Positions 13,575 to 61,819 are shown, numbered from the stretch's first letter. The stretch is 64,000 nucleotides of DNA from Deltaproteobacteria bacterium (GCA_033763315.1 JANRKS010000034.1:340-64339), one strand, 5' to 3'. Numbers and translations: made by a program. Notes: generated by a model not told the origin, from the letters alone.

Positions 13575-14309
13575 GTGTACAAGCGCCCCTATTGTTGGCG
13601 CCCACGCCTGAGAAGGGTTCACTTGCAGTTCGCCGAGGTTCCAAAGCCCTACACTATTCTCATCGTGGACGATCACTTCGTTGCGCGATGCGGATTGCGC
13701 GGATTGTTTGAAACTCAGCCTGACCTTCACGTCGTGGCGGAATCGAACGACGGTGAGTCCGCTGTGCTCGCGTACCGCGAACATAAGCCTGATCTGGTGA
13801 CGATGGATGCCCGTATGCCTCGGCTCAATGGCTCCGCGGCAACACGTCAGATTCTGAAAGACGATCCCGACGCCCGGATCCTCTTTGTGTCGAGCTTTGA
13901 CTCCGAATCCGACGTTCGCGCTGCGCTCGCGGCAGGCGCCCGAGGTTACCTGACGAAGTCGGCCGAACCAACTGAACTGCTGACTGCCGTCCGAACGGTT
14001 GCGCGTGGTGAGCGCTACGTCCCACGGGGCCTTGCGGAGATGCTTGCGCGCGCCGAGGAGCCACACCTGAGCCAACGCGAGAGGAAGCTATTGACCTTGA
14101 TAGCCCGGGGGCTTTCCAACCGCTACGCAGCCCTGGAATTGGGCCTCAGCGCCGGCTCTGTGCGCATCTATGCGAGCCAATTGTTCGGCAAGCTCGGCGT
14201 GAAAAAACGCGGCGAGTTGGTGGCCATCGCTTTGCAACGGGGTTTGATTGAGGCCAACCGGGAGGACAATCTGGCTCCTCAAAATACCCTCGGACCGACA
14301 CGGTGTTGA
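13575..14309 (+). CDS. NarL/FixJ-family response regulator (REC + LuxR HTH), paralog of 1965..2597.
   Basis: ILIVDDHFVARCGLRGLF...PDLVTMDARMP...ILFVSS, then LSQRERKLLTLIARGLSNRYAALELGLSAGSVRIYASQLFGKLG. The track ORF gives a 26-aa N-terminal extension; the true start may be an internal alternative. The stop overlaps the kinase start by 7 nt. Confidence 0.85.
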   Translation: MYKRPYCWRPRLRRVHLQFAEVPKPYTILIVDDHFVARCGLRGLFETQPDLHVVAESNDGESAVLAYREHKPDLVTMDARMPRLNGSAATRQILKDDPDARILFVSSFDSESDVRAALAAGARGYLTKSAEPTELLTAVRTVARGERYVPRGLAEMLARAEEPHLSQRERKLLTLIARGLSNRYAALELGLSAGSVRIYASQLFGKLGVKKRGELVAIALQRGLIEANREDNLAPQNTLGPTRC

Positions 14310-17300
14310 ACGTGTCCAAGTGGGATTTGGCGCTTGGATTTCTTTTGGTTGTGGCTTGGCCGGCCACCGCCATGCCTGCGGGGGAGCAGCGAAGTGAACG
14401 TGGGCCTATAGCCCCTTTTGCGTTTCAGCAGGGCGAGGTTTGGCAGGCCTCGCAAAAGGTTTTCGCGCTTGCCCAAACCAGCGATGGTTTCTTGTGGGCC
14501 GGCACTGATAGCGGTTTGATCCGCTACGACGGACGCGACATCAAGAAATTCACCTCATCTGACACCTACGGACTACGTGAAAACATCGTGACTGCCCTGG
14601 CAACAGACAAAGGCAGGATGCTGTGGCTAGGACTCGAGGGAGGCAGAGGCTTGGCTGGAATGCGCAATGACCGAGTGGAATGGGTGGCGGAAGGACACGC
14701 GCTCCAGGGCCATTCGATCACGGCACTGGTCGTAGATGAACTAGGTGTCGCCTGGGCAGGCACAAAGGGCGGGTTGTTCCGTTATGACCATTCCACATCG
14801 GGTGGCTTAGAACGGTATGCCGCTTGGCCAGGTGGCGAGGTCTTCGTTCTGGCACCAGCTGCGGATGGGAACGGCATTTGGGTCGCTGGAAGCCAAGGGC
14901 TGTTTCGCGCAAGGAATAGCGGAATTGAGCGATACGCAGAGCTGTTCGCTGTCTCTGCGCTGGTTGACAAAGGTGGCGGCGAGCTTGTTGTGGCCGATGC
15001 GTCTGCGGGGTTGCTACGAGTGCAGGCGAACACCACTCCGTCGGTACTGGTTGCGGCGCCCCCGGGAAGCGATGGGACCAAGTTTTCCGCTTTGGCGATG
15101 GCCTCTGACGGACGTATCTGGGCCGGCTGGGGTACCGGCGCCGGCATTCTAACCGGCAACACCATTACACCGGTCCTCGAGACCAGGTCCGAAGTCGTGG
15201 ACCTGCTCTGCGATCAAGAAGGCAACACCTGGGCCGCCAGCTTCTGGGGATTGGTCTATAAGGCCATCGCTCCACGCGTTGCCTTCACCTCGCAACCGGA
15301 CAAACTGCCTGTCGTCTTTGGCGTGACCAGCGATGAAGACGGCGCGATCTGGGCCGCCCAGTTTATGTCTGTGACCCGCATCGATCCCACAACAGGCACG
15401 AACCAGCGATGGGACAGCGGTACCTCGTTTGGTGGTTGGTGTCCCCGGGGTGCCATGCGTGCTGCAGAAGGCGGCGTTTGGTTCCCAACCTGCGACAAGG
15501 GGCTATTCCGCTTCTCTGCTGGCAAGTGGCATCACCCGGGCGCGAAACACCCTGAGAGGGCACAGTTTATCCATTCCCTTTTCGAAAGCGGCGACGGCCA
15601 AGTCTGGATTGGCACAGGGCTTGGTGAGGTCTTTGCCATGGACAAAGGGGGCGCAACAACCCATCACACATTGACCACAGGAACCTGCCTCTCCAAAGAC
15701 CTGCAACGGCGGCCAGGCGTGCGTGAGGAGTGCGGCTTCGCTATCGTGGCCATTACCGAGGACAAAGAGGGTACGATATGGGCTGCGTCTCGCTCTGCCG
15801 GGCTGCATCGCATCCAAGGCAACTCCACCCGTACATTCACGGTTAACGACGGCCTTCCGACGAACAACCTTACGGCATTGCTTGCGGACGGGAACGACCT
15901 GTGGATCGGGACTCAAGGCAATGGTTTGGTTCGCTATCGCCAGGGTGCATTTGCCACCGCTCAAGCGTCAGCCGGTCTTCCGGGGAGCAGCGTGCACGGC
16001 ATACTACAAGACGCCGAAGGATGGCTTTGGCTGACCACAGAAGAGGGCGTCGTCCGCGCAAACAAGGCCGACGTCGAAGCGTATTTCGCCCACACTCGCC
16101 ATGATCTGGGCGCCAGTCTCCTTGTTGATGGCCATGGGTCCAATCCATTCATTCCACTACAGGGCTATCCTGGTGTCATTCATCGAACAGAGTCGGGGAC
16201 CTTGCTGGTGCCAACCGATCACGGCATTTTGTGGGTTGCAACTGAACGAATCTCGCAAACCAAGGGCTTTGCGTCACCGCACTTGGAGTTCGTGCGATTG
16301 CAAGGGGCCCCGCAAAACACAAATACCCCCCATCGTGTGGATTTGCCTGTGGGGGTCGAAGCCCTATCCTCGTTGTCCTACAAGATTGTCGTACCCAATT
16401 TCACTGCGAGTCATCGTATCGTCCTTCGGTACCGCTTACGAGGGCACGAGACGACGTGGCGACAGGCCAATTCAGAACAGCCAATTGAGTACTTGGCCGT
16501 GCCGGCGGGAGAGTACACTTTTGAGGCGTTGGCGGTCTTGGATGGCCAAGCCTGGGCGCCGCCTCTGTTGGCTCCTCAAGTCACCGTCACAAGTTTCCGG
16601 CAGCGCCCTGTTTTCTTCGTTCTTCTGGGGCTGCTGATCTTCCCGGTCTTGGGCGTTGTCTACGTGGTTCGTTTGCATGCAAAACAGCTAGCCAGCCGCC
16701 GAGTGGCTCATGAACGGAATCGCATCGCCCGCGAGTTGCATGACTCGCTGGCCCAGTACTTAAATGGGATCACAATGCAGCTAGAGCGGTCGCGCACAGT
16801 GGGCTGCAAGTCGCCTGGACTCCTGGACGAGATCATTGACTATACCCAGTCCCTTGTGGCGCGCTGCCTGCAAGAAGCCCGGCAATCGATCCAAAATTTG
16901 CGTCAGCATGAAGACCACAAGACAGATCTCCAGGCAGCGATCACCCTCTTGGCAGAGCAAGTCCTTACCATGACGGCTGCACAAAACGTTGAGGTGAAGG
17001 TCTCGATTCGAGGCACGCCCAAGCTCGTTGATTACGAAACTCACTGTCACATCTTGCGAATGGCGCAAGAGGCCACCATGAATGCCCTGTTGCACGCCAA
17101 GGCGTCGGTCATCGAAATCTCACTTCATCAGGACCGTCATCATCTGACGTTGTCGGTGGAAGACAACGGAAGGGGTATCGACCACAGCCAGAAAGAGCGC
17201 CCATTTCACTTCGGTCTACGCGGCATGCAGGAAAGAGCTGAATCGGTGGGCGGTGAACTCACGATTGGCGAGCGTCCCACAGGGGGAACGCTCGTCAAAC

Positions 17301-17311
17301 TGAGGGTCTAG
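14303..17311 (+). CDS. Sensor histidine kinase (1002 aa): signal peptide, two-component regulator beta-propeller repeats, Y_Y_Y domain, one TM segment, HisKA_3 dimerisation domain, HATPase_c.
   Basis: Repeated SDGFLWAGTDSGLIRYDG-type propeller motifs. A Y_Y_Y-like segment (YKIVVPNFTASHRIVLRYRLRGHETTWRQ). TM PVFFVLLGLLIFPVLGVVYVV. HisKA_3 H-box ERNRIARELHDSLAQYL. ATPase N/G boxes (LLHAKASVIEISL, LSVEDNGRGID, GGELTIGERPTGGTLV). Confidence 0.9.
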   Translation: MLNVSKWDLALGFLLVVAWPATAMPAGEQRSERGPIAPFAFQQGEVWQASQKVFALAQTSDGFLWAGTDSGLIRYDGRDIKKFTSSDTYGLRENIVTALATDKGRMLWLGLEGGRGLAGMRNDRVEWVAEGHALQGHSITALVVDELGVAWAGTKGGLFRYDHSTSGGLERYAAWPGGEVFVLAPAADGNGIWVAGSQGLFRARNSGIERYAELFAVSALVDKGGGELVVADASAGLLRVQANTTPSVLVAAPPGSDGTKFSALAMASDGRIWAGWGTGAGILTGNTITPVLETRSEVVDLLCDQEGNTWAASFWGLVYKAIAPRVAFTSQPDKLPVVFGVTSDEDGAIWAAQFMSVTRIDPTTGTNQRWDSGTSFGGWCPRGAMRAAEGGVWFPTCDKGLFRFSAGKWHHPGAKHPERAQFIHSLFESGDGQVWIGTGLGEVFAMDKGGATTHHTLTTGTCLSKDLQRRPGVREECGFAIVAITEDKEGTIWAASRSAGLHRIQGNSTRTFTVNDGLPTNNLTALLADGNDLWIGTQGNGLVRYRQGAFATAQASAGLPGSSVHGILQDAEGWLWLTTEEGVVRANKADVEAYFAHTRHDLGASLLVDGHGSNPFIPLQGYPGVIHRTESGTLLVPTDHGILWVATERISQTKGFASPHLEFVRLQGAPQNTNTPHRVDLPVGVEALSSLSYKIVVPNFTASHRIVLRYRLRGHETTWRQANSEQPIEYLAVPAGEYTFEALAVLDGQAWAPPLLAPQVTVTSFRQRPVFFVLLGLLIFPVLGVVYVVRLHAKQLASRRVAHERNRIARELHDSLAQYLNGITMQLERSRTVGCKSPGLLDEIIDYTQSLVARCLQEARQSIQNLRQHEDHKTDLQAAITLLAEQVLTMTAAQNVEVKVSIRGTPKLVDYETHCHILRMAQEATMNALLHAKASVIEISLHQDRHHLTLSVEDNGRGIDHSQKERPFHFGLRGMQERAESVGGELTIGERPTGGTLVKLRV

Positions 17312-17338: not shown

Positions 17339-18262
17339 TCAAAGGCATTTTGAGAACGTCATGTTGGATCTAATCCGCAGCGTGGCACCGAAGAGCTTTC
17401 GGTCCGCGTAGAAGATGTCAATGGGATACACCTTTCCCGACTCAAGACCGAGGGTCACTGCAGCCTTATCAAGCTGCACCAACACCGGGGTTGCCGCGTG
17501 GACCCCGCCATTGTCTATCGCAAGCCGTCCGTTTATGAACACCCAGGCGTCATCATCAGCCTCCACGATCATGAGTTCGTTCGCTCCAGCGTGGTAGGTG
17601 ATTTCGGCGTGCGCTTCCAGGGTGAAAAGCTGATTGTGAGCCTCGTCCTTCAGCTTATCAGGCTCGTTGCTCGTGGCGGGATTGACCAGATCGACGTTCC
17701 CCAACAAAGCTCCATCGATCGGAAAAAACGGCCCACTGCCCAGGGTGTAAGTCTTTGCTGGACCTGAAGGCGCCAAACCTTCGAATGTGTATTTCTTCGA
17801 CATGTTGACCCCAGGGACGTCATTAAACCACTGAGCAAAGCTTGTCGGGCCCGCAACCTGCCGGAACCCCAACTTATCGACGAGGGGGCCACTGGCACTC
17901 AATTCCGGTTTCTTGTCGGCACCCAAGGTTGCCTTAACCACCCCCATGAGATCTACCTCCCAGCAGGGCATGTCGGGAACACAAGGCTTCTCCTGCACTG
18001 TCTCAAAGTCAGCATGTTTGTTGGTGAAGTCACGAATCGTAGCTTCGATAAGGGGTATGCACGCGGCAGTGCTTCCTGCCGAGCCAGCGCTTCCGCCTGC
18101 CGAGCCAGCGCGGCCGCCCGAGACAACGGCCGTTCCAGCGGAGCCTCCGTTTGCACCGCCACCACGGCCTCCGCTACTCTCGTCGGTCGACGAGCTGTCT
18201 GTACAAGCCCACAAGCTCAGGCTTACAAATAACACCAGGCTTACGTTGTTCGCTATCGGCAT
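17339..18262 (-). CDS. Fibro-slime domain lipoprotein (PA14-like; TIGR02148-type).
   Basis: Lipobox LSLWACTDSS, a Gly/Ser/Ala linker, then FTNKHADFE...FFPIDG...ITYHAGANELMIVEADDDAWVFINGRLAIDNGGVHA. This matches the fibro-slime signature (GDDDVWVFING-LA-DLGG-H). Confidence 0.6.
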   Translation of the reverse strand: MPIANNVSLVLFVSLSLWACTDSSSTDESSGGRGGGANGGSAGTAVVSGGRAGSAGGSAGSAGSTAACIPLIEATIRDFTNKHADFETVQEKPCVPDMPCWEVDLMGVVKATLGADKKPELSASGPLVDKLGFRQVAGPTSFAQWFNDVPGVNMSKKYTFEGLAPSGPAKTYTLGSGPFFPIDGALLGNVDLVNPATSNEPDKLKDEAHNQLFTLEAHAEITYHAGANELMIVEADDDAWVFINGRLAIDNGGVHAATPVLVQLDKAAVTLGLESGKVYPIDIFYADRKLFGATLRIRSNMTFSKCL

Positions 18263-18434
18263 CGACCATGCTCCTCATTGAGGTAAAGTTCTTCAGTACT
18301 AGAAGAGCTGTTACCGCCGAAACGCCACGGCTGGCTACAGGCGTGCGACGATCTTCATCTCGTGAGCGTCCATTCACCTACTTTCGTCAAAGACTGGCAG
18401 AGGTGTCGTGGGGACACTTGGTTTGGAAGTTAAG

Positions 18435-19085
18435 ATGACGAACGCCTCCTCCCCCATCCGTGTCTTGCTCGTTGACGACCACTTTGTCGCCGTGATGGGG
18501 ATCCGTATGCTCCTGGCAGAGCAGGGGGGCTTCGAGGTGGTGGGGGATGCGGCCAGTGGCTTGGCGGGAGTAAAGCTGTACGCGGAACTCAGACCCGATC
18601 TTGTCCTTGTCGACATGAAGATGGACAACTTCGATGGCGCCAGCACGGCGTCCGCAATTCGGCGAACTGATCCCAACGCGCGGATTCTAATGTTCTCGAG
18701 CTACGACGCGGAAATGGACGTGGCCCGCGCACGAGCCGCCGGGGTCTTGGGCTACGTGTTTAAGGAAGCCGGACCCGTTGCGCTGCTCAAGGCAATGGAA
18801 GCCGTTGCTCGAGGTGAGGAAAGTTTTCCTCATGGCAACGAGCTGGGTGCGCGCGCCACCGTAGAGGGTGCTGCTCCAATCAACGCGCGCGATCTCCAGC
18901 TGTTGCGGCTGTTGTGCCTCGGATGCAGCAACAAGGAGATCGCTGAGCACACTGGCCTGCAACTAACAACTATCAAGGACTACCTCAACGAGCTGATGAC
19001 AAAAATGGGCGTCAGCAACCGCAACGAAGCTTCTTTTGAGGCGGTTCGACGCGGCCTCGTTCGGTTGCCGCACAAGAAGCCCTGA
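18435..19085 (+). CDS. NarL/FixJ-family response regulator, third paralog, with no adjacent kinase.
   Basis: MTNASSPIRVLLVDDHFVAVMGIRMLL...PDLVLVDMKMD...ILMFSS, then LQLLRLLCLGCSNKEIAEHTGLQLTTIKDYLNELMTKMG. The ATG at 18435 has ggaag 6 nt upstream; the ORF is open from 18408. Confidence 0.85.
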   Translation: MTNASSPIRVLLVDDHFVAVMGIRMLLAEQGGFEVVGDAASGLAGVKLYAELRPDLVLVDMKMDNFDGASTASAIRRTDPNARILMFSSYDAEMDVARARAAGVLGYVFKEAGPVALLKAMEAVARGEESFPHGNELGARATVEGAAPINARDLQLLRLLCLGCSNKEIAEHTGLQLTTIKDYLNELMTKMGVSNRNEASFEAVRRGLVRLPHKKP

Positions 19086-19105: not shown

Positions 19106-20092
19106 CTACGGCTTGGTTGGACAACCGACGGGCTTGCGGTCGATGGCGATATCATCGATCCAAAGGGTCACTGGTTTTTCCATTTTATGCCAGTGTCGGA
19201 AGCCGAACTTCGTCACCGTTACGGCTGGCAGATACCAGGTGTCCTGGAACAAATTTCCGTTTGTAGTGCACTGAGCGCTGACGAAGTCGAGCATGAGCTG
19301 GAACACGCCCAGGTTGCGGCCGTTGATCCTTACGGCGTAATTGAACGGCTCAGTCTCCGACAGATCCATCTCGACACACACCCATTCTCCCAGAGGAAGA
19401 TCCAACGCCTTTTGCACGGAGCAATCTTGGGAAGTTCCGCCACCGGCCAGAGGTGTTCCGAAATGGTGCAGTTTGTACTTGCCTTCACCCAATCCGCCGA
19501 CAGATACAAAGCCGACCGCGTCCTTTCCGCCTCCCGAGATCTTGCCATGATGTGCAACAAGGTCCCAATGGCCGTTGTTCCCAGGCAGGCCTTCCATCCA
19601 AAGCATGAAGCGGGTGAAGACAGTCTTTGATGAGGCAAGGCCCAGGCTCCTATCCGTTCGGAGCGAGACTAAGCCCGATTGGTTCTCGTTGCCGTTGGGC
19701 TCGAGGTGAAACCGAAGGGACTGAACTCCCGAAAACGCGTGCGTTCGATCTAGCTTCGCGGCACGGTCGTCGTCGGTGAGCGGACTGAGGGGTGGACTGC
19801 CAGGTTCCCCTTGCTCGAAGTCGTTCTGGTACTTGTGTCCCCCTAAGTTGCCTGCCTGCCCACCTGTTGCGCCTGGCATACCGCCCGTACTACCACCGGC
19901 CCCCGCTATGCCACCACCGGCCCCTGCCACGCCACCCACGCCACCCTCCCCACGACCCATCTCACCGTCGCTACCAGAAGAGCCACCGATGTCGCCATCA
20001 TCGCCCGTTCCAGACGACCTTGCGTCTGACGTACAGGCCGCAAGTAGGGAGCATGCGAACACGATCTTGAGAAATCTCAGCTGACAGACCAT
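19106..20092 (-). CDS. Secreted lipoprotein with Gly-rich linker and a C-terminal beta-sandwich (CBM-like) domain of unknown function.
   Basis: Lipobox FACSLLAACTSD, a long Gly-rich low-complexity linker, then a C-terminal domain ending ...KPVTLWIDDIAIDRKP. No catalytic motif is recognised. Confidence 0.5.
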   Translation of the reverse strand: MVCQLRFLKIVFACSLLAACTSDARSSGTGDDGDIGGSSGSDGEMGRGEGGVGGVAGAGGGIAGAGGSTGGMPGATGGQAGNLGGHKYQNDFEQGEPGSPPLSPLTDDDRAAKLDRTHAFSGVQSLRFHLEPNGNENQSGLVSLRTDRSLGLASSKTVFTRFMLWMEGLPGNNGHWDLVAHHGKISGGGKDAVGFVSVGGLGEGKYKLHHFGTPLAGGGTSQDCSVQKALDLPLGEWVCVEMDLSETEPFNYAVRINGRNLGVFQLMLDFVSAQCTTNGNLFQDTWYLPAVTVTKFGFRHWHKMEKPVTLWIDDIAIDRKPVGCPTKP

Positions 20093-20340
20093 GCATGAAG
20101 ACTACCTGCAAGAGTCGGCATCCGCGGCATGGCGATACTGCCTGGCAAACGGAAGACCTCCTTTTGGCAATACCACTCGTCAATGAGCAGCTTTAGCTTT
20201 CAAACAAGTTGATAGGCGGCCCCAGTTTGGCGGCCAAGCTGTCCGCGAGTGGACCGCGGCTCACGCGTAACAAGTCTGTTCGTCGAGTCGGTCAATTAGC
20301 TAGAGCAGGGAGTGCCGGGCCAGTTCCCGGTAGAAACAGT

Positions 20341-21330
20341 ATGCAACGTATCGGGTCGGTTATAGCCACATTCATCTTGCTCTACATCAGCGCTGTCACG
20401 GCGAGCTGTGGCGGTCCTTCGAGTCAGACGAATGACTCAGGCGGCGAAGGGGGCGCAGGGGGCAGTATCGCAGAAGGCGGCTCAAGCGGTAAAGCCGGCT
20501 CAGGCGGGGGCGCCGCGCGAGGCGGCTCAGGCGGCAGCACCGCGACAGGCGGCTCAGGCGGCAGCACCGCGACAGGCGGGAAAGGCGGCTCAAACGGCAA
20601 CGCAGTGGGAGGGAGTGGAGGAATCGGCGGCAGCGGGTTGAACGCTACTGCGACTCGTCCGGAGCCGATCCTGTATTTGAAGATGGACGACGGGTCGGGA
20701 TTCGGCGCGGTGGACTCCTCGGGGCTCGACCACAAAGTGTCCGTCAAGCCACCCGAGATTGGAAGTGCTTGGGTCACTGGAAAAATGGGAGGAGGCATCG
20801 CCTTTGACGGAACGAACTGGCTCACGGTGCGCACCAGCCCTTACCTTGATGGCGTCGATTCTGAAACCGGCACAGGCCAAGTCACCTTAGCCGCCTGGGT
20901 TTATCCGACGGCCTTCGATACGAAGAACTTGAAGCCTATGTTTATTGTCGGCCGACAGATAGGCACCACCACCGGCAATCAGTTCGGTTTGGCACTCGTG
21001 CCGGTTTCAGGCAAGGCAGGGCACCTGGGTGCATTCTTTGGCCCGTTTGGAGGCTTGTCCGCACCGGATGGTGCGCTTCCTCTCAACACGTGGACGCATG
21101 TCGCCGTGACCTACGATGGCATCACAGCCGTCCTCTACACGAACGGGCAAAAGACCTTCTCTAGTGCAGTCGTTGCGGAAATGCCTCCGGAGCGCGGCCC
21201 GGTCATTGTAGGCGGTGACATTAACAGCGCTTCAGGTGTCTCCGAGCTCTTCGTAGGCAGCCTGGATGAGGTCCGCATCTACAACAGGGTCTTGTCGGAT
21301 GCGGAGATTGCAGGCGTCGCGAAACCATGA
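20341..21330 (+). CDS. Small lipoprotein with a Gly/Ser repeat linker and a single LamG/ConA-like (LamG_3) domain.
   Basis: Signal/lipobox MQRIGSVIATFILLYISAVTASCGG (the ORF is open from 20209, but the signal peptide starts at 20341). Linker with a perfect GGSGGSTAT duplication. C-terminal domain ends LFVGSLDEVRIYNRVLSDAEIAGV, nearly identical to the LamG domain ends inside the PilY1-like giant. Confidence 0.75.
   Translation: MQRIGSVIATFILLYISAVTASCGGPSSQTNDSGGEGGAGGSIAEGGSSGKAGSGGGAARGGSGGSTATGGSGGSTATGGKGGSNGNAVGGSGGIGGSGLNATATRPEPILYLKMDDGSGFGAVDSSGLDHKVSVKPPEIGSAWVTGKMGGGIAFDGTNWLTVRTSPYLDGVDSETGTGQVTLAAWVYPTAFDTKNLKPMFIVGRQIGTTTGNQFGLALVPVSGKAGHLGAFFGPFGGLSAPDGALPLNTWTHVAVTYDGITAVLYTNGQKTFSSAVVAEMPPERGPVIVGGDINSASGVSELFVGSLDEVRIYNRVLSDAEIAGVAKP
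20521..20574 (+). repeat. Perfect 27-bp x2 in-frame tandem repeat (ggcggctcaggcggcagcaccgcgaca), with degenerate copies on both sides (about 20476..20600).
   Basis: Seen directly in the sequence; it encodes GGSGGSTAT twice within the lipoprotein linker. Confidence 0.6.
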
Positions 21331-21399: not shown

Positions 21400-23061
21400 A
21401 TGCTAACAAGATCAAACGGCAACCCAATCATAGGTTACGCCCTGGCGAGCATCCTTTGGGCTGGTGGGTGTTCGGGGCAGGTCGAAGGCATCAACGGGCA
21501 AGGTGGCTCAGGCGAACCCGCTGCCGTGAGCTTGGCTTTGCGTACAACAACCTCGCGCCTGACCGACGCCCAGTACCGAAACACGCTTGTGGCGGTCACA
21601 GGCCTCCCGATGTCGGCATTTTCGCCGCTGCCTAAGGCTGCCGTCTTAGGAAAAAACTATTTTGACAACAACATTGAGGCGCTGGAAATTTCCAACAGCT
21701 TCGTCGCGCAGTTGAACAGCAACGCCGTTGCGGCGGCCAACGCCTTGTCGCCTCGGGACCTTGCGCCTTGCGCCCAGGATGCGGACTCAAAAGCTTGCGG
21801 TCTCGACTTCATCCGATCCTTTGGGCAGCGTGCGTTTCGGCGCCCGTTGGACACAGCCGAATCGGAACGCTTTTCAAAGTTTTTTGACGGGGCGGTTGAG
21901 CAGTTTGGCTACGATGAAGCGGTTCGCTTAACTGTCACGGCATTCTTGCAAGCGCCAGAGTTCGCGTACCTCATCGAAGAAACCGGCGAGCCCAACGACC
22001 GTGGCGAGGCAACGTTGACGCCGTATTCCCTTGCGTCGAGGCTATCTTACACTCTGACCCAGGGACCTCCCGACGACGAGCTCATAGCGAACGTCGAGGG
22101 CCTTGGTGATGCGGTGACCCTGCGCAAACAGATCGACCGCTTGTTGTCAGAAGGCAAGGCGGGGGGCGCTGTGAGAGACTTCTTTCGGGGCTGGTTGCAT
22201 ATACAAGCGGCTTCCTACGAGCGTAAGAAGGCGGCTTTCGACGGCTTAACGGTTGAACAAAACAGTAGTGTGCCGGAATCGTTGTCGCGCTTCGCGAACC
22301 AGGTCTTTTGGGAACAGGGTGGTCGACTTGATCGACTCTTCTCAAGCAATAAAGCCTTCGTAAATCCCGCGCTCGCCAGCCTGTGGGACGTGCCGATGTC
22401 CGGTGACCAGTGGCAGGAGGTGGATCTACAGACCGACCGTTTTTCTGGCGGCCTTTTGACTCAGCCGGCGTGGTTGGCGATGGTGCAATCACCGAAGTCG
22501 CTCTATCGCGGTCTCTTTGTGTTGGAGCGTCTTCTCTGTGTTCACGTCCCACCTCCTCCTCCCAACATTGTGCTGAATCTCGGAACGCCCGACCAAGAAT
22601 TGGACGGCAAGCCACTAACAGATCGCCAACGCTTGGAGCTCGTTCACGAAAAGCAAGGCACGAACTGCGGCGCTTGCCACGCCACCATCGATCCGCCTGG
22701 TTTCGCTTTTGAACACTTTGACGAGGTTGGCCGGTGGCGCGATCAGGACAACGGCCAGACCATCGATTCAAGCGGCGAACTGAACTGGGACACCGACGTG
22801 GATGGTCCCTTCGACGATGGGCTTCAACTCGCAAAGAAGCTACAGAACAGCCGAACGTTGCAGGCTTGCGTGGCACGGCAGTGGTTCAGGTTCCTGCACG
22901 GCCGCGCTGAAGAGGCAGAGGGTGAAGCGGACGCTAAGGCCATTGAAGGGTTTGCGAAGATCCTGGAAGACACAGGCGGGAACATGCGCAATCTCGTCAA
23001 GGAGATCCTGGCTTCACCCTCGTTTAGAACGCGCCCATGGACATTGGAGAGGCCGCAATGA
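21400..23061 (+). CDS. DUF1587/DUF1592/DUF1595/DUF1588/DUF1585-family lipoprotein (553 aa).
   Basis: Lipobox ILWAGGCSG. LTDAQYRNTLV (DUF1587-like), FGQRAFRRPL (DUF1592-like), GLLTQPAWLA (DUF1588-like), and C-terminal CGACHATIDPPGFAFEHFDEVGRWR (DUF1585-like CxxCH...DP.GF..E.FD..G.WR). The stop overlaps the next gene. Confidence 0.8.
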   Translation: MLTRSNGNPIIGYALASILWAGGCSGQVEGINGQGGSGEPAAVSLALRTTTSRLTDAQYRNTLVAVTGLPMSAFSPLPKAAVLGKNYFDNNIEALEISNSFVAQLNSNAVAAANALSPRDLAPCAQDADSKACGLDFIRSFGQRAFRRPLDTAESERFSKFFDGAVEQFGYDEAVRLTVTAFLQAPEFAYLIEETGEPNDRGEATLTPYSLASRLSYTLTQGPPDDELIANVEGLGDAVTLRKQIDRLLSEGKAGGAVRDFFRGWLHIQAASYERKKAAFDGLTVEQNSSVPESLSRFANQVFWEQGGRLDRLFSSNKAFVNPALASLWDVPMSGDQWQEVDLQTDRFSGGLLTQPAWLAMVQSPKSLYRGLFVLERLLCVHVPPPPPNIVLNLGTPDQELDGKPLTDRQRLELVHEKQGTNCGACHATIDPPGFAFEHFDEVGRWRDQDNGQTIDSSGELNWDTDVDGPFDDGLQLAKKLQNSRTLQACVARQWFRFLHGRAEEAEGEADAKAIEGFAKILEDTGGNMRNLVKEILASPSFRTRPWTLERPQ

Positions 23062-24440
23062 AAAATGTGCATCATTCCCCCGGACTGGCCAGCGCCACGC
23101 GGCGGCAGATCTTGCGCACCGTTGGTCTGTCGGGCCTTGGACTTGGAGCCGGGACCTTGTCTTTCCGGCCCATCGCTCAAGCTGCTGAGATTCCCAAACG
23201 ATTGGTGGTGTTCTACACGATTGGCGGTGTGGATCCAGCGTGGGACCCCAAAGGTGACCGCACCAACTGGGAGCTGAGCGACCACCTTTCGCCACTGAAG
23301 CCCTTCAAGGAGAAGCTGAACTTGGTGTCAGGTCTCAAATCGGGATCCGCTGAGTTCGGTTTCAACGATGGAGGCGGACACGGAAGCAGATCTCAGCACG
23401 CTCTGGCCGCCTGGGCTCCCAAGTCAGTCAAAGAGAATCCCAGCGAAAACAGTTTGCCGGGAGGGGTCAGCTTTGACAATTTCATCGCGGAGAAGCTTAG
23501 GGCATCAGGCAACTCAGCCCCTATCGATCACTTGTACCTGCTGTCAAAGACAACGGGCTACGACTATCACGACTTCAATCTGTACCCTTCCCGGCGGAGC
23601 AATGGCGAGGTCCGGCATCCCGACGAGAACGCTGCCGCGATCGTGGACTTGTACTTTCCGAAGGGCAACAGCAAGCCGAAATCGACCGGGCCTGATTCCT
23701 CGGCCTACTTGGTGAATTTCCTCAAGCAGCAGTACGACCGGTACGCCAAGGCCGATAAGATGGACCTTGAGAGCAAACGTCGCTTTTCGAGCCATCTGGA
23801 TCGCTTGACTGACCTAGAAAAGCTCTCCGCGAGGGCCGCCTCTGACGCGTGTACGCGCCCGGAGGTTCCGACTGCGACAGACCTCGTTACTAGAAATCGA
23901 TTCTTTGCCGAACTCGTGGCGACCGCATTGGCTTGTGACACCGCGCGAGTGATCTTGCTGGACATGGGATGGGCGGTGAGCCCTTCGTTGGTGGGAGGCG
24001 TAAAGGAATTCAATTTGCCTCCCGCCAACCAGACCATCCACGAGCTGGGCCACGAGGTTCATGGCACCGGACCTCTTTCCACCAACCAAGCGGCCAGAGA
24101 CAAGCTTCTACACAGCTTTCGCATTCAAAACGTAGACCCCTTGTCTCAGCTCCTGGCCAAGATGGATTCCGTCCAGGAAGCCGATGGGAAGACCTTGTTA
24201 GACCACAGCGCGGTTTTGTGGTGCCAACAGTCTTCTGATGGCAACCACGGCCTAACGGACTTTCGCTACTTATTGGCTGGCGGCGCCGGCGGCAAGCTCA
24301 AGACGAACCAGTACCTGCACCTGCCGGGGCGGTCGACGGCCGATGTGTGGGTGACGCTTGCCAAAGCGATGGGGATCTCCGACACAACAGGAATCGCGGA
24401 CAGGTTCGCGTACGATGGCCCTATCGACGAGTTGCTGTAG
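23058..24440 (+). CDS. DUF1552-family protein with twin-arginine (TAT) signal; partner of the preceding DUF1592-family gene.
   Basis: MKNVHHSPGLASATRRQILRTVGLSGLGLGAG is a TAT signal. The ATG at 23058 overlaps the upstream stop (aTGa); the ORF is open from 23037. Same length and architecture as 57369..58724. Confidence 0.8.
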   Translation: MKNVHHSPGLASATRRQILRTVGLSGLGLGAGTLSFRPIAQAAEIPKRLVVFYTIGGVDPAWDPKGDRTNWELSDHLSPLKPFKEKLNLVSGLKSGSAEFGFNDGGGHGSRSQHALAAWAPKSVKENPSENSLPGGVSFDNFIAEKLRASGNSAPIDHLYLLSKTTGYDYHDFNLYPSRRSNGEVRHPDENAAAIVDLYFPKGNSKPKSTGPDSSAYLVNFLKQQYDRYAKADKMDLESKRRFSSHLDRLTDLEKLSARAASDACTRPEVPTATDLVTRNRFFAELVATALACDTARVILLDMGWAVSPSLVGGVKEFNLPPANQTIHELGHEVHGTGPLSTNQAARDKLLHSFRIQNVDPLSQLLAKMDSVQEADGKTLLDHSAVLWCQQSSDGNHGLTDFRYLLAGGAGGKLKTNQYLHLPGRSTADVWVTLAKAMGISDTTGIADRFAYDGPIDELL

Positions 24441-24534
24441 GCGCCCCTCCGTTGATCGGTCTGGAACCAGCCGGCGCGATGAACTTCTAACGGAGGATCA
24501 TTTTTGTGGCCTCCGAGAATGGCTCGTTTTCTTC

Positions 24535-27500
24535 ATGAGAGTTTCCGGTCAGTTCATGCCTATATGCATGCTCCTGGCGACAGCGTTGTCGGCGCCTTTC
24601 ACCACAAGCGCTTGGGCACATCCCTCCGACTCCGAAATCCAGTTCAACAGGGACATCCGTCCGATCCTCTCGAGCCGCTGCTTTTACTGCCACGGACCCG
24701 ACAAGGCGAAACGAAAATCGGGTTTGCGCTTGGATTTGCGGGAGGCCGCAATTGAAGACAAGGCCATTGTGGCTGGCCGCCCAGACGAGAGCGGGCTTTA
24801 CGCGCGAATCATGGCAACGGAGCCCGACGAAGTGATGCCTCCACCTGAAAGCCACAAGACGCTCAGCAAAGGCGAGATCGACTTGCTGAGGCGCTGGATC
24901 CAGAGCGGGGCCGAATACCAGCCCCATTGGTCCTACGCGCCCGTAAAGAAAACGGCCGTTCCTCCCTCTGAGGGCACGCTGGGAGCCGGGATTGGTGCCG
25001 GGACGCGGGCCGAAACGGCTCAAGCGGCGCCTACAACGGCCATTGATAAGTTCGTGTCGCGTGAGCTGCGCGAACGGGGCATGGTGCCGTCACCTCGAGC
25101 CGGCAAGCGCACCCTGTTGCGACGGCTGTCTTTGGACTTGACGGGCCTACCGCCCACGCTCAACGAACTCGATGCGTTTGCTGCCGATGAGCGCCCAGAC
25201 GCCTACAAGCGGCAAGTGGAAAGGCTCCTGGCATCCCCGCATTACGGCGAGCGTATGGCTGTCCCCTGGCTGGATCTGGTGCGGTTTGCAGACACCGTTG
25301 GCTATCACGGCGACCAAAACCAAAACATCTTTCCGTACCGTGACTACGTAATCGAATCGTTCAATCGCAACAAGCCTTTTGACCGATTTACGATTGAGCA
25401 GATCGCTGGCGATCTTCTACCCGGTGCGACCGAAGAGCAGAAGATCGCTTCGGGCTTTAACCGCTTGAACATGGTAACCCGCGAGGGAGGCGCTCAGCCC
25501 AAGGAGTACTTGGCGAAGTACATGGCTGACCGGGTGCGGGCGGTTGGCACCGTGTGGCTGGGCTCGACAACTGGCTGTGCACAGTGCCACGACCACAAGT
25601 TTGATCCTTTCACCCAGCGGGACTTCTACGCCATGGGTGCGTTCTTTGCGGACCTGAAGGAGTGGGGTGTCTACACAGATTACGAATACACCCCGAATCC
25701 GGAACTCAAGGGCTTTACGAACGATTCCCCGTTCCCGCCCGAGATCAAGATACATAGCGCTGTGCTCCAGCGCTTGTCTACTTCATTGCGAGCGCAGGAG
25801 CAGGCCTGGCGAAGAGAGGCATACCAGCAGATCCTACAGCACCATCTCAAAGCGCGGAACGAATGGATGCGCGGTGTGAGAGGTTGGATGGCGACCTCAC
25901 GTGACGGCTGGCAACCGGTCCTGCCAAATGAAGTGCTCAGCGAGGATCCTACCGTAGAAAACTCAATCGACGGTGAGACGGTCATCTTCAAAAGCAAGAA
26001 AAACGCCGGCCCGTTTGAATTTCCGGTTTCCACACTGCATTTCACTGTGCCTCCTGGTTCCCCTTTGCGATCGCTGGCGAGTGTGCGCTTGCAGGTCGTG
26101 CCGCACGCCAGCCACCAAGGTGGCACGTGGCGCAACGAACGGGAAACTGTGTTGTTGTGGCTCGATGTGAGGATCAAGCGCAAAGGCGCCAAGATCAGCG
26201 GCGATCTGATCGGAATCGCCAACGCCGACGCAGATCACAGAGCGAAGCGGTACGTAAGCGGCACTCTGCAGAACGATGTGGTGAATGGATGGTCGCTATC
26301 CCCGGCCTTCCGGCGAGTTCTGCAGACGTCAGTGTGGGATCTAAAGGTTCCGCAGGACCTCGATCCAGGGGACGAGGTGGTGGTGAGAATTCGCTCCGAC
26401 GGTGTGGGGGCTGTGAGGCTTGCCGTTTCTCCCATTGCCACACTCAGCGGCGATGCACCAGCTGGATGGGCCGCGGGCGGAGCGCCATGGGTACGGAAGC
26501 TGAAAGCCGGTATGTCGAGCGACCGCGGTGCCTCGGCTCTGTTTTTGGCGAGCACAAACATCTTGCCACGGCTACGCCGCCTCATTTTGAACGAACGGCG
26601 ACAGTGGTTGTCGATCGCCAACGCAACGGCGTACTCACTGGTGAGCGTTGCCACGACGCCCCGAGAAACCCGAGTGCTGCCACGTGGCGATTGGCAGAAC
26701 GAAAACGGAGAGGTGGTGCAGCCTGGGACCCCGAACTTCTTGCCGCAGATTGCGGACGTCGGCAAGCGCCGCTTGACGCGCCTGGATCTCGCGCGATGGT
26801 TGGTGTCGCGTGACAATCCGCTAACGTCACGCGCGTTCATGAACCGATTGTGGAAGCAGTTCTTTGGAACCGGACTCTCGGCGGCGCTCGACGATCTGGG
26901 CGGACAGGGAGAGCCTCCCACGCACCCAGAATTGTTGGATTGGCTTGCTGCCGAGTTCACAGATTCGGGCTGGGACGTCAAGCACATGGTTCGGCTGTTG
27001 GTGATGTCCGCGACATACCAGCAGGACTCGCAAGCCCGCCCTGAACTCATGAAAAAGGATCCACAAAATCGCTATCTGGCTCGACAATCGCAGCGGCGTT
27101 TGGACGCAGAATTCCTGCGTGACAACGTCCTGAAGGTGGCGGGTCTTCTAAATGAGGACATCGGTGGACCCAGTGTTCATCCCTACCAACCGGCGGGTTA
27201 CTACGAGAACATCGAATTTCCCAAGCGGGAATACGTGAGCGAGCAGGACGACAGGGTATACAAGCGCGGCGTCTACATGCACTGGCAGCGGACCTTCCTC
27301 CATCCCATGGCGGCCAACTTCGACGCTCCCTCGCGCGAAGAATGCGTGGCCGACCGTCCGATCTCCAACACCCCCCAACAGGCGCTGACCTTGCTTAACG
27401 ACCCCACCTTCGTTGAAGCGGCTCGGGTGTTCAGCGAACGAAACCTCAAGCAAACTCCTGGTCTCAAAGATGAAAAGCGCTTAGGAAGAGCCTTCGCAAC

Positions 27501-27720
27501 GGCGCTTGGTCGGGCGCCATCGGCGCTAGAGAGCCGTCAACTCTTGAAACTGCTTGACGAAGAACGAAGCCGATTCGGAGCGGCTCCGGAAGACGCCGAG
27601 GCATTGTTGGGAATTGGTCAACATCCTCGCGATCCGAAGCTTTCAGCATGTGAAGTAGCCGCTTGGACATCCGTGTCCCGCGTCATTCTCAATTTGTACG
27701 ACGCCATCACGAGAGTATGA
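24535..27720 (+). CDS. PSCyt1 (cytochrome c-like CxxCH) / DUF1549 (PSCyt2) / DUF1553 (PSD1) large secreted protein.
   Basis: Signal peptide [28 protein letters not shown] (the ORF is open from 24358). [27 protein letters not shown] (heme-binding-like CxxCH). [18 protein letters not shown]...[15 protein letters not shown] (DUF1549-like). A DUF1553-like C-terminal region. Confidence 0.85.
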   Translation: [1061 protein letters not shown]

Positions 27721-29162
27721 AGTTAAGCCACGCAATGAAGGAATTCGAGATTGACCGGCGCCGCCGAACCCTCCTCACAGGCGCTGGCTACGGTTTGGGT
27801 GCCGCCGCCTTGGGGCACCTTTGGCCAGGATCTGCGCACGCCGCTTCGAGGCCACGCGGGTGGTCCGGTGTGCTCACTGAGGCCGACTTTCCGGTTAGGG
27901 CCAAGCGGGTGATTCACCTCTGTATGGCGGGGGGACCCTCCCAGTTCGAGACCCTGGATTGGAAACCGATCCTGAGGAAGCTGCACGGCCAGCCCTTCCC
28001 AGCATCGCTAACGAAGGGTCAACAACTTGCGCAACTTCAAAACACGCCGCTTATCGCCCGTGGGTCGTTCGTCGACTTCAAGAGATACGGAAAGTCGGGG
28101 CAGGAGATTTCAACACTACTCCCACACATCGGGAGCGTCGCCGATGACATCTGTATCATTCGATCAATGTACGGCGAGCAGATCAACCACGATCCCGCAC
28201 ACGCTTTCATGAACACGGGCTCGATCTTGAAAAATCGACCGAGTATGGGCTCTTGGTTGCTGTATGGACTGGGTGCCGAAAGCCAGGACTTACCAGGCTT
28301 CGTGGTTATGGTTTCCGTCGGGCGAGATGGCGATCAGCCGATTTCCTCTCGCCAATGGTCTGCAGGTTTTTTGCCCAGTCGATTCCAAGGCATCCAGTTT
28401 CAATCGAAGGGCGACGCCGTGCATTTTGCGAAGCGCCCCGATGGAGTGAGCAAGGGCGCCCAAGAGCGCATCACGCAAACGGTGCGAGAGCTTGATGCGG
28501 CGACTTTTGCCGCGCGCTTGGATCCGGAAATTGAAACACGCATCAGCCAGTACGAGATGGCGTTTCGTATGCAAACCTCGGTACCCGAATTGACCGACCT
28601 GTCATCCGAGCCGAAGAGCGTCCTCGCGGCTTATGGCATCGAACGACCAGGTGACGGTAGTTTCGCATCCAATTGTTTGATGGCCAGGCGGCTTGCAGAG
28701 CGCGGCGTGCGGTTCATTCAACTTTACCACCGTGCGTGGGACCATCACGGCGACATTGAGAAGCACCTGCCCCGCGTGGCCCAAGGTGTGGATCAGCCCT
28801 GCGCGGCCCTCATCAAGGATCTGAAACAACGCGGAATGCTGGACGACACCCTGGTGATATGGGGAGGTGAATTTGGTCGCACCCCGATGGGTCAAGGATC
28901 AGGCCGGGATCACCACATCAATGCGTTTTCGATTTGGATGGCCGGAGGCGGCGTCAAGGGTGGCATGAGCTGGGGACACACAGACGAAATGGGATACAAC
29001 CACCTTAAGGACGGGCAGGAAGTCGCTGTACGAGATCTACACGCAACCATGCTGCGCCTGTGCGGTGTCGACCACAATCGCTTGACGTTTCCGTACCAGG
29101 GTCTCGATCAAAGACTGACCGGCGTTGAAGAAGCGCGAGTTGTAAAGGAGATCATTTCGTAG
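27717..29162 (+). CDS. DUF1501-family (sulfatase/alkaline-phosphatase-like) protein with TAT signal; partner of the preceding PSCyt/DUF1553 gene.
   Basis: MKLSHAMKEFEIDRRRRTLLTGAGYGLGAAALGH is a TAT signal. The start ATG at 27717 overlaps the upstream TGA (ATGA). C-terminal HRAWDHHGDIEKH and GGEFGRTP are typical of DUF1501. Confidence 0.85.
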   Translation: MKLSHAMKEFEIDRRRRTLLTGAGYGLGAAALGHLWPGSAHAASRPRGWSGVLTEADFPVRAKRVIHLCMAGGPSQFETLDWKPILRKLHGQPFPASLTKGQQLAQLQNTPLIARGSFVDFKRYGKSGQEISTLLPHIGSVADDICIIRSMYGEQINHDPAHAFMNTGSILKNRPSMGSWLLYGLGAESQDLPGFVVMVSVGRDGDQPISSRQWSAGFLPSRFQGIQFQSKGDAVHFAKRPDGVSKGAQERITQTVRELDAATFAARLDPEIETRISQYEMAFRMQTSVPELTDLSSEPKSVLAAYGIERPGDGSFASNCLMARRLAERGVRFIQLYHRAWDHHGDIEKHLPRVAQGVDQPCAALIKDLKQRGMLDDTLVIWGGEFGRTPMGQGSGRDHHINAFSIWMAGGGVKGGMSWGHTDEMGYNHLKDGQEVAVRDLHATMLRLCGVDHNRLTFPYQGLDQRLTGVEEARVVKEIIS

Positions 29163-29811
29163 ATGGACTGATCCTCAGAGCGCGAAAGAATCCAACGGTG
29201 CCAGGGCCGATCCAAAGAGCGATCGCTCCCGTCAGCTCCGGGAGCTTGAGGTCGTGAACGACCAGCGCAGGCTGAGTGCTGGAATGAACGAACAAGCGTG
29301 CTTCCTTGCCCTTCACCACGATTCGAATATGGGTCCACGCCCCCGGTTCCAAGTCGACATAGGACTCGTACTTCCCTGGCGCTTCCGCCCGCAGGCGGGA
29401 CCACGGGAATTCAGGATAGCTCGCGTATTGCGTAGCGTGATTGCGCCGCAATTGATCATCGGCACGGCCGTTGGTGGGGCGCAGATAGATTACCTCGTAC
29501 CGCGGCTCTTCCGTCTGGACCCGAAAAGCCAGGCCAATGAAGCCGCGGGCCTCGCCGTTGGCTTTCTCGTCGACTGTGCCCGCGACATCAAGTTCGATCG
29601 TGCCATCTGAAAACTTATGGTCTTTGATCACGGCGATGCCGTCGCCCTTTAGGCGCGTAGACGTCTTGCCTTTGTATTTAACGGCCGCCACTTCCACGCC
29701 CCGTGGGAGGAGAGCGGTGGGAGCGATCAAATTAGCTGCGGCTCCAGCGTGATGCGAAAGCAGGAGTGCGCCAGCAAAGACCAATCGAGCCAAAGCGTGC
29801 CGGGCGGTCAT
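29152..29811 (-). CDS. Secreted DUF1080-like (3-keto-disaccharide hydrolase / ConA-like) protein.
   Basis: Signal peptide MTARHALARLVFAGALLLSHHAGAAA (start 29811; the ORF is open to 29892). FSDGTIELDV...GFIGLAFRV...YEVIYLRP...WTHIRIVVKGKEARLFV resembles the DUF1080 jelly-roll pattern. Family-level call only. Confidence 0.5.
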   Translation of the reverse strand: MTARHALARLVFAGALLLSHHAGAAANLIAPTALLPRGVEVAAVKYKGKTSTRLKGDGIAVIKDHKFSDGTIELDVAGTVDEKANGEARGFIGLAFRVQTEEPRYEVIYLRPTNGRADDQLRRNHATQYASYPEFPWSRLRAEAPGKYESYVDLEPGAWTHIRIVVKGKEARLFVHSSTQPALVVHDLKLPELTGAIALWIGPGTVGFFRALRISPSTK

Positions 29812-30004
29812 CAGCGAAAAAGAGCCAATGAAGGAAAGGTCCGGCACACAGTTTCGTGCAATGGGCCGCATGACATCGTTGAGAAGAAACACAGGGTAAC
29901 AATAGTCCCAGCGGACTCAGGCTTGCCACCCCCGAACCCGCCACTTGTCCTCGGGAGGGAGAAAATCCTCCTTTCGTCAATGAACCTCGCAAGCACCTAA
30001 CGGC

Positions 30005-57349: not shown

Positions 57350-57368
57350 GCCGCGAAGGAGACCAATC

Positions 57369-61726: not shown

Positions 61727-61819
61727 AAGGCCTCCAAGTTTGCAAAGTCCCGCCGGCCGGTGCCGGTATCGAGCCAAGTAGCAAAGTGTAAGCTATGTCG
61801 ACGGGGACGGCTACGTCGT

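Follow-up and report, generated by a model that had tools for sequence, protein, structure and literature searches.

The window analysed here is a 64,000 nt stretch of a metagenome-assembled genome (MAG) labelled 'Deltaproteobacteria bacterium' (GCA_033763315.1, JANRKS010000034.1:340-64339), in which open reading frame (ORF) calling detects three small two-gene sets, comprising six ORFs that are all on the plus strand. Each set encodes a large exported protein with haem-like CxxCH motifs followed by a smaller protein of the DUF1552 or DUF1501 family, bearing a twin-arginine translocation (Tat) signal. Two of the sets, pairs 1 and 2, are adjacent to one another at 21400-29162, and the third, pair 3, is found at 55688-58724. 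Taken as longest ORFs, the six sequences extend over 21400-23061, 23037-24440, 24358-27720, 27663-29162, 55688-57349 and 57321-58724; these coordinates exaggerate the overlaps between the genes, as the realistic starts lie further 3'. All six are real genes rather than chance ORFs, since their Pfam scores are well above the cut-offs and the same proteins are annotated by NCBI in a 384 kb contig of the 'Deltaproteobacteria bacterium' MAG.

In pair 1, the gene for a 553 aa large subunit (21400-23061) is followed by that for a 460 aa DUF1552 protein (23058-24440), the start of which, an ATG at 23058 with a GGAG 8 nt upstream, overlaps the preceding TGA as an ATGA (23058-23061). The same type of junction, an ATGA at 27717-27720, is found in pair 2 between the genes for a 1061 aa large subunit (24535-27720) and a 481 aa DUF1501 protein (27717-29162). 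The starts at 23058 and 27717 agree with the lengths given by NCBI, which are 460 aa for the DUF1552 protein (MDX2023875.1) and 481 aa for the DUF1501 protein (MDX2023877.1). The large gene of pair 2 most plausibly starts with the ATG at 24535, giving an N terminus that begins MRVSGQF (MRVSGQFMPICMLLATALSAPFTTSAWA) and an ordinary signal peptide ending in AWA. As the stop of the DUF1552 gene lies at 24440, pairs 1 and 2 therefore abut without overlapping, separated by a 94 bp gap (24441-24534) in which an uninformative scan gave no promoter-like or terminator-like site. Pair 3 consists of a second gene for a 553 aa large subunit (55688-57349) and one for a 451 aa DUF1552 protein (57369-58724), with the start ATG of the latter positioned 19 nt past the upstream stop and 7 nt after an AAGGAG. 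The initial annotation of 21400-29162 described four genes that overlap or nearly abut; this is true within each of the two pairs, where the ATGA it placed at 27717 is real and has a counterpart at 23058, but not between them.

The family assignments proposed for all six genes are borne out by Pfam searches. Both 553 aa proteins have PSD3, PSD5, PSD4, PSCyt3 and PSD2 domains in that order (PF07626, PF07637, PF07631, PF07627 and PF07624, or DUF1587/1595/1592/1588/1585), all scoring above the gathering cut-offs, with the PSD3 match of pair 1 being borderline (23.3 bits against a cut-off of 23). The 1061 aa protein of pair 2 is composed of PSCyt1 (PF07635, E 4e-15), PSCyt2/DUF1549 (PF07583, E 8e-84) and PSD1/DUF1553 (PF07587, E 3e-96), again in that order, with a variable middle region at approximately residues 403-714 preceding PSD1. 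The DUF1501 protein covers the whole of its profile (PF07394, positions 1-390) at 512.7 bits against a cut-off of 27 (E 1e-153), and the DUF1552 proteins (PF07586) score 91.8 bits in pair 1 and 156.3 bits in pair 3, the cut-off being 30. We are highly confident that the three pairs of the window are independent of one another and belong to two known two-gene modules that are paralogous. In module A, which comprises pairs 1 and 3, a DUF1552 protein comes after a PSCyt3/PSD lipoprotein; in module B, represented by pair 2, a DUF1501 protein comes after a PSCyt1-PSCyt2-PSD1 protein.

The haem-like CxxCH motifs and Tat signals are present as originally claimed. A single CxxCH is found in the large subunit of pair 1 (CGACH, starting at 22666), two are found in that of pair 2 (CFYCH at 24679 and CAQCH at 25576) and the motif of pair 3 is CSGCH at 56978. 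Lipoboxes occur only in the two PSCyt3-type proteins (AGGC at 21460 in pair 1 and TGGC at 55751 in pair 3), and a comparison of five members of this family shows no change in either the lipobox Cys or the CxxCH. Hence the description of the large proteins as lipoproteins applies to these two, but not to the PSCyt1/2 protein of pair 2, which has a plain signal peptide without a lipobox. A twin-arginine motif is found in all three small proteins and is kept across both families; in the DUF1501 protein it is part of an RRTLL sequence at residues 16-20, preceding a hydrophobic stretch that ends in AHA, and none of 38 homologues differs at R16 or R17.

The conservation of the large protein of pair 2 is concentrated in recognisable motifs: in a set of 40 orthologues from several phyla, C49/C52/H53, M101-P-P, C348/C351/H352 and a D-H-K-x-D-P that follows the second CxxCH are each conserved to at least 97%, and a further alignment (A3) of 11 sequences shows no variation in M101-P-P or in either CxxCH. 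Judged from these alignments, selection on the haem-binding motifs of the partner is strict. Met101-Pro-Pro would fit the axial ligand of a class-I cytochrome, with PSCyt1 representing a class-I-like cytochrome c domain. When a profile of the large subunit was compared with the PDB, a weak likeness of its PSCyt1 domain (24640-24990), not significant at E values of 0.24-0.35, was found to the haem domain at the C terminus of hydrazine synthase alpha (5c2v_A) and to the iron oxidase FoxE (5mab_A), through the motifs 'F-x-R-D-I-x-P-I-L...C-x-x-C-H' and 'M-P-P...W-I-x-x-G-A'. Homology between the PSCyt3-type and the PSCyt1/2/PSD1 proteins is not supported by hhalign, which gave a probability of 12% and a likeness limited to a short 'RLSxxLTGxPP...RLL' stretch.

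The fold of the small subunits was approached through AlphaFold2 (AF2) models. That of DUF1552, built from a diverse 29-sequence alignment, has a predicted local distance difference test (pLDDT) score of 77.5 and a predicted TM-score (pTM) of 0.81, and the top 50 matches to it in a Foldseek search of the PDB all belong to the alkaline-phosphatase superfamily (best E 2.8e-5, probability up to 1.0), including steroid, choline and carbohydrate sulfatases, phosphonate monoester hydrolases and LtaS. On this model DUF1552 shares the sulfatase / phosphonate monoester hydrolase fold, and the sulfatase-like fold attributed to these proteins at the outset is thereby substantiated for this family. Searches of PDB sequences with single proteins and with profiles returned nothing significant, and no close relative with a solved structure; nor did hhalign give a significant match between either profile, DUF1552 or DUF1501, and the single genuine sulfatase encoded in the loci retrieved (L051). 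Between DUF1501 and DUF1552 themselves, hhalign gave an alignment 121 columns long at the C-terminal end (E 2e-5, probability 76%), and the AF2 model of DUF1501 matched alkaline-phosphatase superfamily enzymes only, nearly all of them sulfatases, at E 2e-3 or weaker. The region of DUF1501 past the helix also aligns, weakly, with the sulfatase motif 'NTLIFF..DNG'. These profile comparisons indicate that DUF1501 is distantly homologous to DUF1552, and that both Tat subunits form one sulfatase-fold lineage lacking the formylglycine motif. DUF1501 is presumably a member of the alkaline-phosphatase clan in Pfam/InterPro.

Relative to the type I sulfatases and phosphonate monoester hydrolases, the Tat subunits thus have the core fold in common, in the case of the DUF1552 model, or a weak likeness at the level of motifs, in the case of DUF1501. 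They are unlike type I sulfatases in their His-rich core, their Tat export and their association with a partner bearing cytochrome motifs, and a motif scan detected no C/S-x-P-x-R formylglycine motif in any of the three. Similarly, the Asp-Asp that ends the first strand in the metal site of type I sulfatases is replaced by P/G-N/G-G in DUF1552 and by C-M-A-G-G in DUF1501, at a position taken from predicted secondary structure.

Among 153 divergent DUF1552 representatives, R48, H108, D140, H328, H332, D382 and H397 are near-invariant, each being found in at least 144, and the conserved core further includes G57, an S/T-x-D-Q motif at the N terminus of a helix and a Glu that is usual at position 391. 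In the secondary structure of the model, H108 and S138 are situated at helix N termini, H328 and H332 are one turn apart in a helix, and E/Q391...H397 follows a strand; by analogy, this His/Asp pattern would recall how metal is bound in alkaline phosphatase and nucleotide pyrophosphatase/phosphodiesterase (NPP), the two-metal sites of which have D-x-x-x-H and D-H ligands. Both His residues of the HxxSH motif, found in 146 (H328) and 151 (H332) of the representatives, are present in pairs 1 and 3, with the Ser replaced by Gly in pair 1 (HELGH) and by Glu in pair 3 (HTMEH). As only 60 representatives have this Ser, it is not really family-defining. Residues 328-335 of the pair 1 protein, HELGHEVH, are also found in three close relatives and resemble the HExxH of zinc proteases. 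The idea that this sequence, together with Gln391, constitutes a special active site was rejected, with Glu following the first His in 26 of the 153 representatives and Gln391 occurring in 20; the third His is the sole feature of that helix specific to the subfamily. In DUF1501, approximately 190 residues are invariant among 38 homologues, including H67, C69, S75, H158, D159, H338, D342, H344, E385, D398 and H399.

The DUF1501 protein of pair 2 has close relatives in a wide range of bacteria. Its best 120 matches are all at least 64% identical, and a scan of species-representative genomes with a DUF1501 alignment identified 80 loci (L009-L088) at 62-69% identity, in Verrucomicrobiota, Planctomycetota, Acidobacteriota, Armatimonadota, Kiritimatiellia and Haliangiales/'Deltaproteobacteria' (Myxococcota). 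With identities of 62-76% across at least five phyla, it is unusually conserved for a protein with no assigned function. Of the 76 loci with room for it, 66 have a full-length orthologue of the 1061 aa partner, with an end-to-end identity of approximately 45-52%, immediately 5' of the DUF1501 gene and in the same orientation, and in two further loci the partner is found about 3 kb downstream of the DUF1501 gene. When all flanking ORFs of the 80 loci were clustered, no third conserved neighbour emerged, the only other clusters being shadow ORFs inside the two genes; the individual surroundings of the loci are unrelated to one another. A DUF1552 gene is found within 6 kb of DUF1501 in just three of the 80 loci, only one of which, from Planctomycetota (L016), has the gene order of the window. 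Because no third gene is conserved, DUF1552 is rarely nearby and the contexts are unrelated, pair 2 is taken to be a self-contained two-gene module and a stand-alone orthogroup, the position of which beside pair 1 is incidental.

Near relatives of the DUF1552 protein of pair 1 are few. Three, at 59-64% identity, came from a word-indexed search of 5.8 billion proteins, the rest of the matches being at 30% or less; a HMMER scan of 1.84 billion representatives detected one 50%-identity cluster at 66%, the next best being 36%; and a metagenome scan contributed one further informative locus. As far as these searches reach, pair 1 is a rare, isolated subfamily. A PSCyt3-type gene is directly upstream of DUF1552 in every relative with upstream sequence (L001, L003, L004 and L089), encoding an orthologue of the pair 1 large subunit at 50-57% identity. 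The two genes overlap by 4 nt in L001, L003 and L004, and a 4 nt overlap like those at the ATGA junctions of pairs 1 and 2 is also kept in the orthologue locus L005. Hence the assertion that the partners are conserved neighbours is upheld for both modules surveyed. None of the relatives with downstream sequence (L001, L004 and L089) has a PSCyt1/2/PSD1 and DUF1501 pair beside it.

Upstream of pair 1, Pfam searches identify a Reg_prop/HisKA_3 sensor kinase (14303-17311, plus strand), a PA14 protein (17339-18262, minus strand), a LuxR-type response regulator (18408-19085, plus strand), a Cip1-like protein (19106-20092, minus strand) and, 69 bp from the pair, a Laminin_G_3 (concanavalin-like lectin) protein (20209-21330, plus strand; E 5e-24). 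The four loci that extend far enough upstream, namely the window, L001 (5419-6519), L003 (3456-4478) and L089 (7108-8142), all encode a PA14 protein of this kind (44-52% identity), the gene for which is just upstream of the pair in L001 and L089; this protein may be a third component of the system formed by the pair 1 subfamily. Orthologues of the Cip1-like protein (32-45%) recur in L001 and L003, and those of the kinase (53%) and the LuxR-type regulator (71%) in L003, whilst L004 has GH15 and GH78 genes downstream of the pair. The Laminin_G_3 gene, which is possibly the first of the pair 1 transcription unit, has no orthologue in the related pair 1 loci. Given the nearby PA14, Cip1-like and Laminin_G_3 proteins and Reg_prop kinase, together with the glycoside hydrolases of L004, the pair 1 locus is probably glycan-responsive.

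The glycan-gene setting originally described for the cluster is supported as far as the carbohydrate context of pair 1 is concerned. The GH29 alpha-L-fucosidase (40780-42135, minus strand) is 11.6 kb from pair 2, beyond ABC exporter genes, and the DUF1080 match is sub-threshold; a CE2 esterase identified by Pfam is 1.9 kb downstream of pair 2. The DUF1080-like sequence is a convergent ORF (29152-29892, minus strand), the longest reading of which overlaps the 3' end of the DUF1501 gene by 11 nt, and its match to the DUF1080/3-keto-disaccharide hydrolase profile has an E value of 0.0011 and scores 19.5 bits against a cut-off of 26.8. The 3-keto-disaccharide hydrolase family belongs to oxidative, non-hydrolytic glycoside cleavage pathways; a gene of this kind would suit a redox role for the neighbouring pair, the match being too weak to rely on. 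Among the Pfam-scanned ORFs at 13437-43494 there are no SusC, SusD or TonB-dependent receptor domains of the sort that would mark a Bacteroidetes-type polysaccharide utilisation locus. The neighbours of pair 3 are housekeeping genes encoding SecA, an SDR protein, a pseudouridine synthase, AroE and XseA. A convergent ORF of 994 aa (58793-61777, minus strand), without any Pfam match even at E values up to 1, comes immediately after pair 3.

Several other features of the window were recorded in passing. An ORF of 2343 aa (6222-13253, minus strand) has at least four Laminin_G_3 repeats and weak pentaxin, sialidase-N and DUF1080-like matches; its large product is probably secreted and akin to a lectin or adhesin. 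The fucosidase gene is followed on the same strand by one encoding a FadL/TodX-type outer-membrane channel (42193-43494, minus strand), unrelated to the pairs. Further along, an ORF of 502 aa (44178-45686, plus strand) combines VipA-like and VipB-like type VI secretion sheath domains in one product, and the next gene encodes a Ser/Thr protein kinase of 673 aa (45702-47723).

The initial annotation implied that the obligate pairing of these families was novel, but it is already in print. The location of DUF1501 genes beside those for PSCyt1/PSCyt2/PSD1 proteins, and the associated Tat signals, have been reported, along with a proposed role in electron transport and a proposed link to the intracellular membranes of the Planctomycetes-Verrucomicrobia-Chlamydiae (PVC) bacteria (Kamneva 2012, PMC3542564). 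The pairings are also covered by a second study (He 2017, PMC5615132, Text S1 and Fig. S7b), which counted up to 71 DUF1501 genes per genome and found the density of PSCyt genes to be highest in genomes from oxic water layers, and inverse to that of glycoside hydrolase genes. An operon of DUF1800 and DUF1501 genes is known in Proteobacteria (Goncalves 2016, PMC5122149); as here, a Tat-exported DUF1501 protein is encoded alongside a large protein, but the partner is of the DUF1800 rather than the PSCyt/PSD type.

Pair 2 has the architecture, gene order, DUF1501 Tat signal and close coupling of the PSCyt1/PSCyt2/PSD1 and DUF1501 module of Planctomycetes and Verrucomicrobia. It differs in its 'Deltaproteobacteria' (Myxococcota-like) MAG host, in having a partner without any recognisable carbohydrate-binding or Big_2 insertion, and in constituting a stand-alone orthogroup with no other conserved neighbour. 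The four-gene cluster described by Kamneva, consisting of DUF1501, PPC, PSCyt1-Big_2-PSCyt2-PSD1 and PSCyt1-WD40 genes, is unlike the window in its composition. Pairs 1 and 3 match the PSCyt3/PSD2-5 and DUF1552 module in the five domains and lone CxxCH of the large protein, and in the DUF1552 protein with a Tat signal that comes after it, although pair 1 differs from the general module in being an isolated lineage with neighbours of its own, these being the PA14 and Cip1-like proteins and the Reg_prop kinase with its LuxR-type regulator. This module was reportedly described by Studholme and colleagues in 2004, the year in which the families first appeared in print, and no function is known to have been assigned to them since.

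We propose that each pair would form a two-subunit enzyme of 1:1 stoichiometry on the periplasmic side of the inner membrane. Such a complex is the simplest reading of the tight coupling of the genes, their near-obligate adjacency, the division of the products between Tat and Sec export, the invariant His/Asp core and the conserved haem motifs. The small subunit, with its alkaline-phosphatase/sulfatase-superfamily fold and a His/Asp-rich metal site but no formylglycine motif, would be the catalytic part, folding in the cytoplasm, where it would probably also be loaded with metal, before being exported through Tat. The large subunit would be exported unfolded through Sec and would carry haem c covalently attached at the invariant CxxCH motif or motifs; it would tether the complex, by means of a lipid anchor in module A, provide a substrate-binding surface in its variable middle region, and connect the respiratory chain with the active site or substrate by electron transfer. 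The translational coupling through the ATGA would keep the subunits at 1:1. Two observations favour a redox reaction, namely the retention of an entire cytochrome c domain across phyla and the association of these genes with oxic habitats. Substrates would differ between the pairs: that of pair 1 would relate to its glycan-responsive-looking locus, whilst the conservation of the pair 2 orthogroup across phyla argues for one fixed, general substrate; the context of pair 3 is uninformative. In SorAB sulfite dehydrogenase, the catalytic subunit is exported by Tat and the cytochrome c subunit by Sec. Dehydrogenases of this type would split the work and the export routes in the way envisaged here, in the sense of working alike only: their catalytic subunits contain molybdenum, flavin adenine dinucleotide or pyrroloquinoline quinone in unrelated folds, and no homology is claimed. 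The chain as a whole, from two-subunit periplasmic metalloenzymes with a haem c partner to redox coupling, is put forward tentatively, as quite possible but short of probable.

A number of points weigh against this proposal. We know of no alkaline-phosphatase-superfamily enzyme with redox chemistry or a cytochrome subunit, and no characterised member of the DUF1501 or DUF1552 family was found in the literature searched; as the initial annotation held, neither has a functional name in Pfam 2025 or NCBIfam 2026. The TM-scores of the DUF1552 model to sulfatases are just 0.33-0.40, so that the core fold alone is common to them, and the DUF1501 model is poor (pLDDT 53), having been made from a shallow alignment of sequences at 65-76% identity. 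The active-site positions come from sequence and predicted secondary structure rather than coordinates, and haem attachment, metal content and contact between the subunits are all predictions. Pairs 2 and 3 are without a carbohydrate-specific context. Finally, the conserved S138 of DUF1552 and S75 of DUF1501 could act as classical nucleophiles, which would favour plain hydrolysis.

If these residues were indeed nucleophiles, the DUF1501 and DUF1552 proteins could be ordinary phospho- or sulfo-ester hydrolases or transferases, with a Ser/Thr nucleophile and a two-metal site, and the large protein would serve to anchor the enzyme and select its substrate, any haem being structural or regulatory. 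To our knowledge every enzyme of this fold is a hydrolase, transferase or mutase, and the enzymes found in the fold matches conform to this pattern. The candidate nucleophiles are well kept, S/T138 within the S/T-x-D-Q of DUF1552 and the invariant S75 within a GGPS in DUF1501; the H-x-x-x-H ... E ... H of the former would resemble the two-metal sites of alkaline phosphatase and NPP, and the weak alignment of DUF1501 with the sulfatase 'NTLIFF..DNG' motif points the same way. However, there is no C/S-x-P-x-R motif, and the metal Asp of the first strand has given way to N/G in DUF1552 and to A-G-G in DUF1501. Tat export is unusual for simple sulfatases and PhoA-type phosphatases, and a class-I-type cytochrome c domain and a second CxxCH that remain invariant across at least five phyla are hard to explain without electron transfer. 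Simple hydrolysis seems somewhat unlikely.

A non-catalytic role is improbable. In that case the pairs would be capture or transport modules, analogous to SusD, that bind glycans or polymers at the envelope and hand them over, and the sulfatase-fold protein would be a pseudo-enzyme. The large paralogous expansions of these families, and the carbohydrate-binding modules inserted into many of the partners (He 2017, PMC5615132; Kamneva 2012, PMC3542564), would accord with such a function, as would a DUF1592 protein of Cellvibrio that bears a CBM2 and was detected in a lignocellulose metaproteome, and the PA14 and Laminin_G_3 neighbours of pair 1. Yet the His/Asp core that is near-invariant in 153 DUF1552 sequences and the approximately 190 invariant residues of DUF1501 have the signature of an active site, and pair 2 has neither a carbohydrate-binding module nor a glycan context.

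The system outlined in the initial annotation was a single obligate four-gene unit, of which the pair at 55688 was a recent duplicate, acting with the fucosidase, esterase and DUF1080 protein on sulfated or methylated glycans. The four genes at 21400-29162 are on the same strand with short gaps and may be co-transcribed, the same order is found in L016, and both the CE2 esterase and the weak DUF1080-like ORF are near. However, the large proteins of pairs 1 and 3 are only 32% identical, and their DUF1552 proteins 25%, as expected of old paralogues; the equal lengths cited in favour of duplication are a longest-ORF artefact in the case of the DUF1552 proteins (467 aa, the true values being 460 aa and 451 aa), and a coincidence in that of the 553 aa proteins. 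With 77 of the 80 DUF1501 loci having no DUF1552 gene within 6 kb, L001, L004 and L089 having no DUF1501 pair, the fucosidase separated from the cluster by unrelated genes and pair 3 in a housekeeping context, the recent duplication, the obligate four-gene unit and the link to the fucosidase are rejected, and the arrangement as a whole is very improbable. The proposal that the module is tied to PVC-type intracellular membranes, made because one DUF1501 cluster type correlates with compartmentalised PVC species (Kamneva 2012, PMC3542564), is scarcely credible for an orthogroup that occurs at 62-69% identity in Acidobacteriota, Armatimonadota and Myxococcota/'Deltaproteobacteria' MAGs, the window itself coming from a 'Deltaproteobacteria' MAG.

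In Planctomycetes, Verrucomicrobia and some Myxococcota, few uncharacterised gene expansions are as large as those of the two paired families, which reach tens of copies per genome (He 2017, PMC5615132). To the pairing already published, this analysis adds the fold of DUF1552, as modelled, the apparent homology of DUF1501 and DUF1552, the absence of a formylglycine motif from both and the existence of a tractable, deeply conserved DUF1501 orthogroup. The question of function is thereby narrowed, through the single lineage of the Tat subunits, the strictly selected haem motifs, the DUF1501 orthogroup and a DUF1552 subfamily with defined glycan-related and regulatory neighbours. As the DUF1501 orthogroup occurs in cultivated strains, for example Singulisphaera acidiphila DSM 18658 and Brevifollis gellanilyticus, genetic and biochemical work on it is practicable. 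That the DUF1501 and DUF1552 proteins are the first alkaline-phosphatase/sulfatase-fold enzymes to be wired to a dedicated c-type cytochrome subunit, and hence a new periplasmic redox-coupled class, is a rather unlikely suggestion; were it true, they might, for example, act oxidatively on glycans or envelope polymers, removing or transforming groups attached by an ester bond or otherwise, and pair 2, as a general-purpose member conserved deeply enough to occur in at least five phyla, would be a good entry point for assigning a function to these large families.

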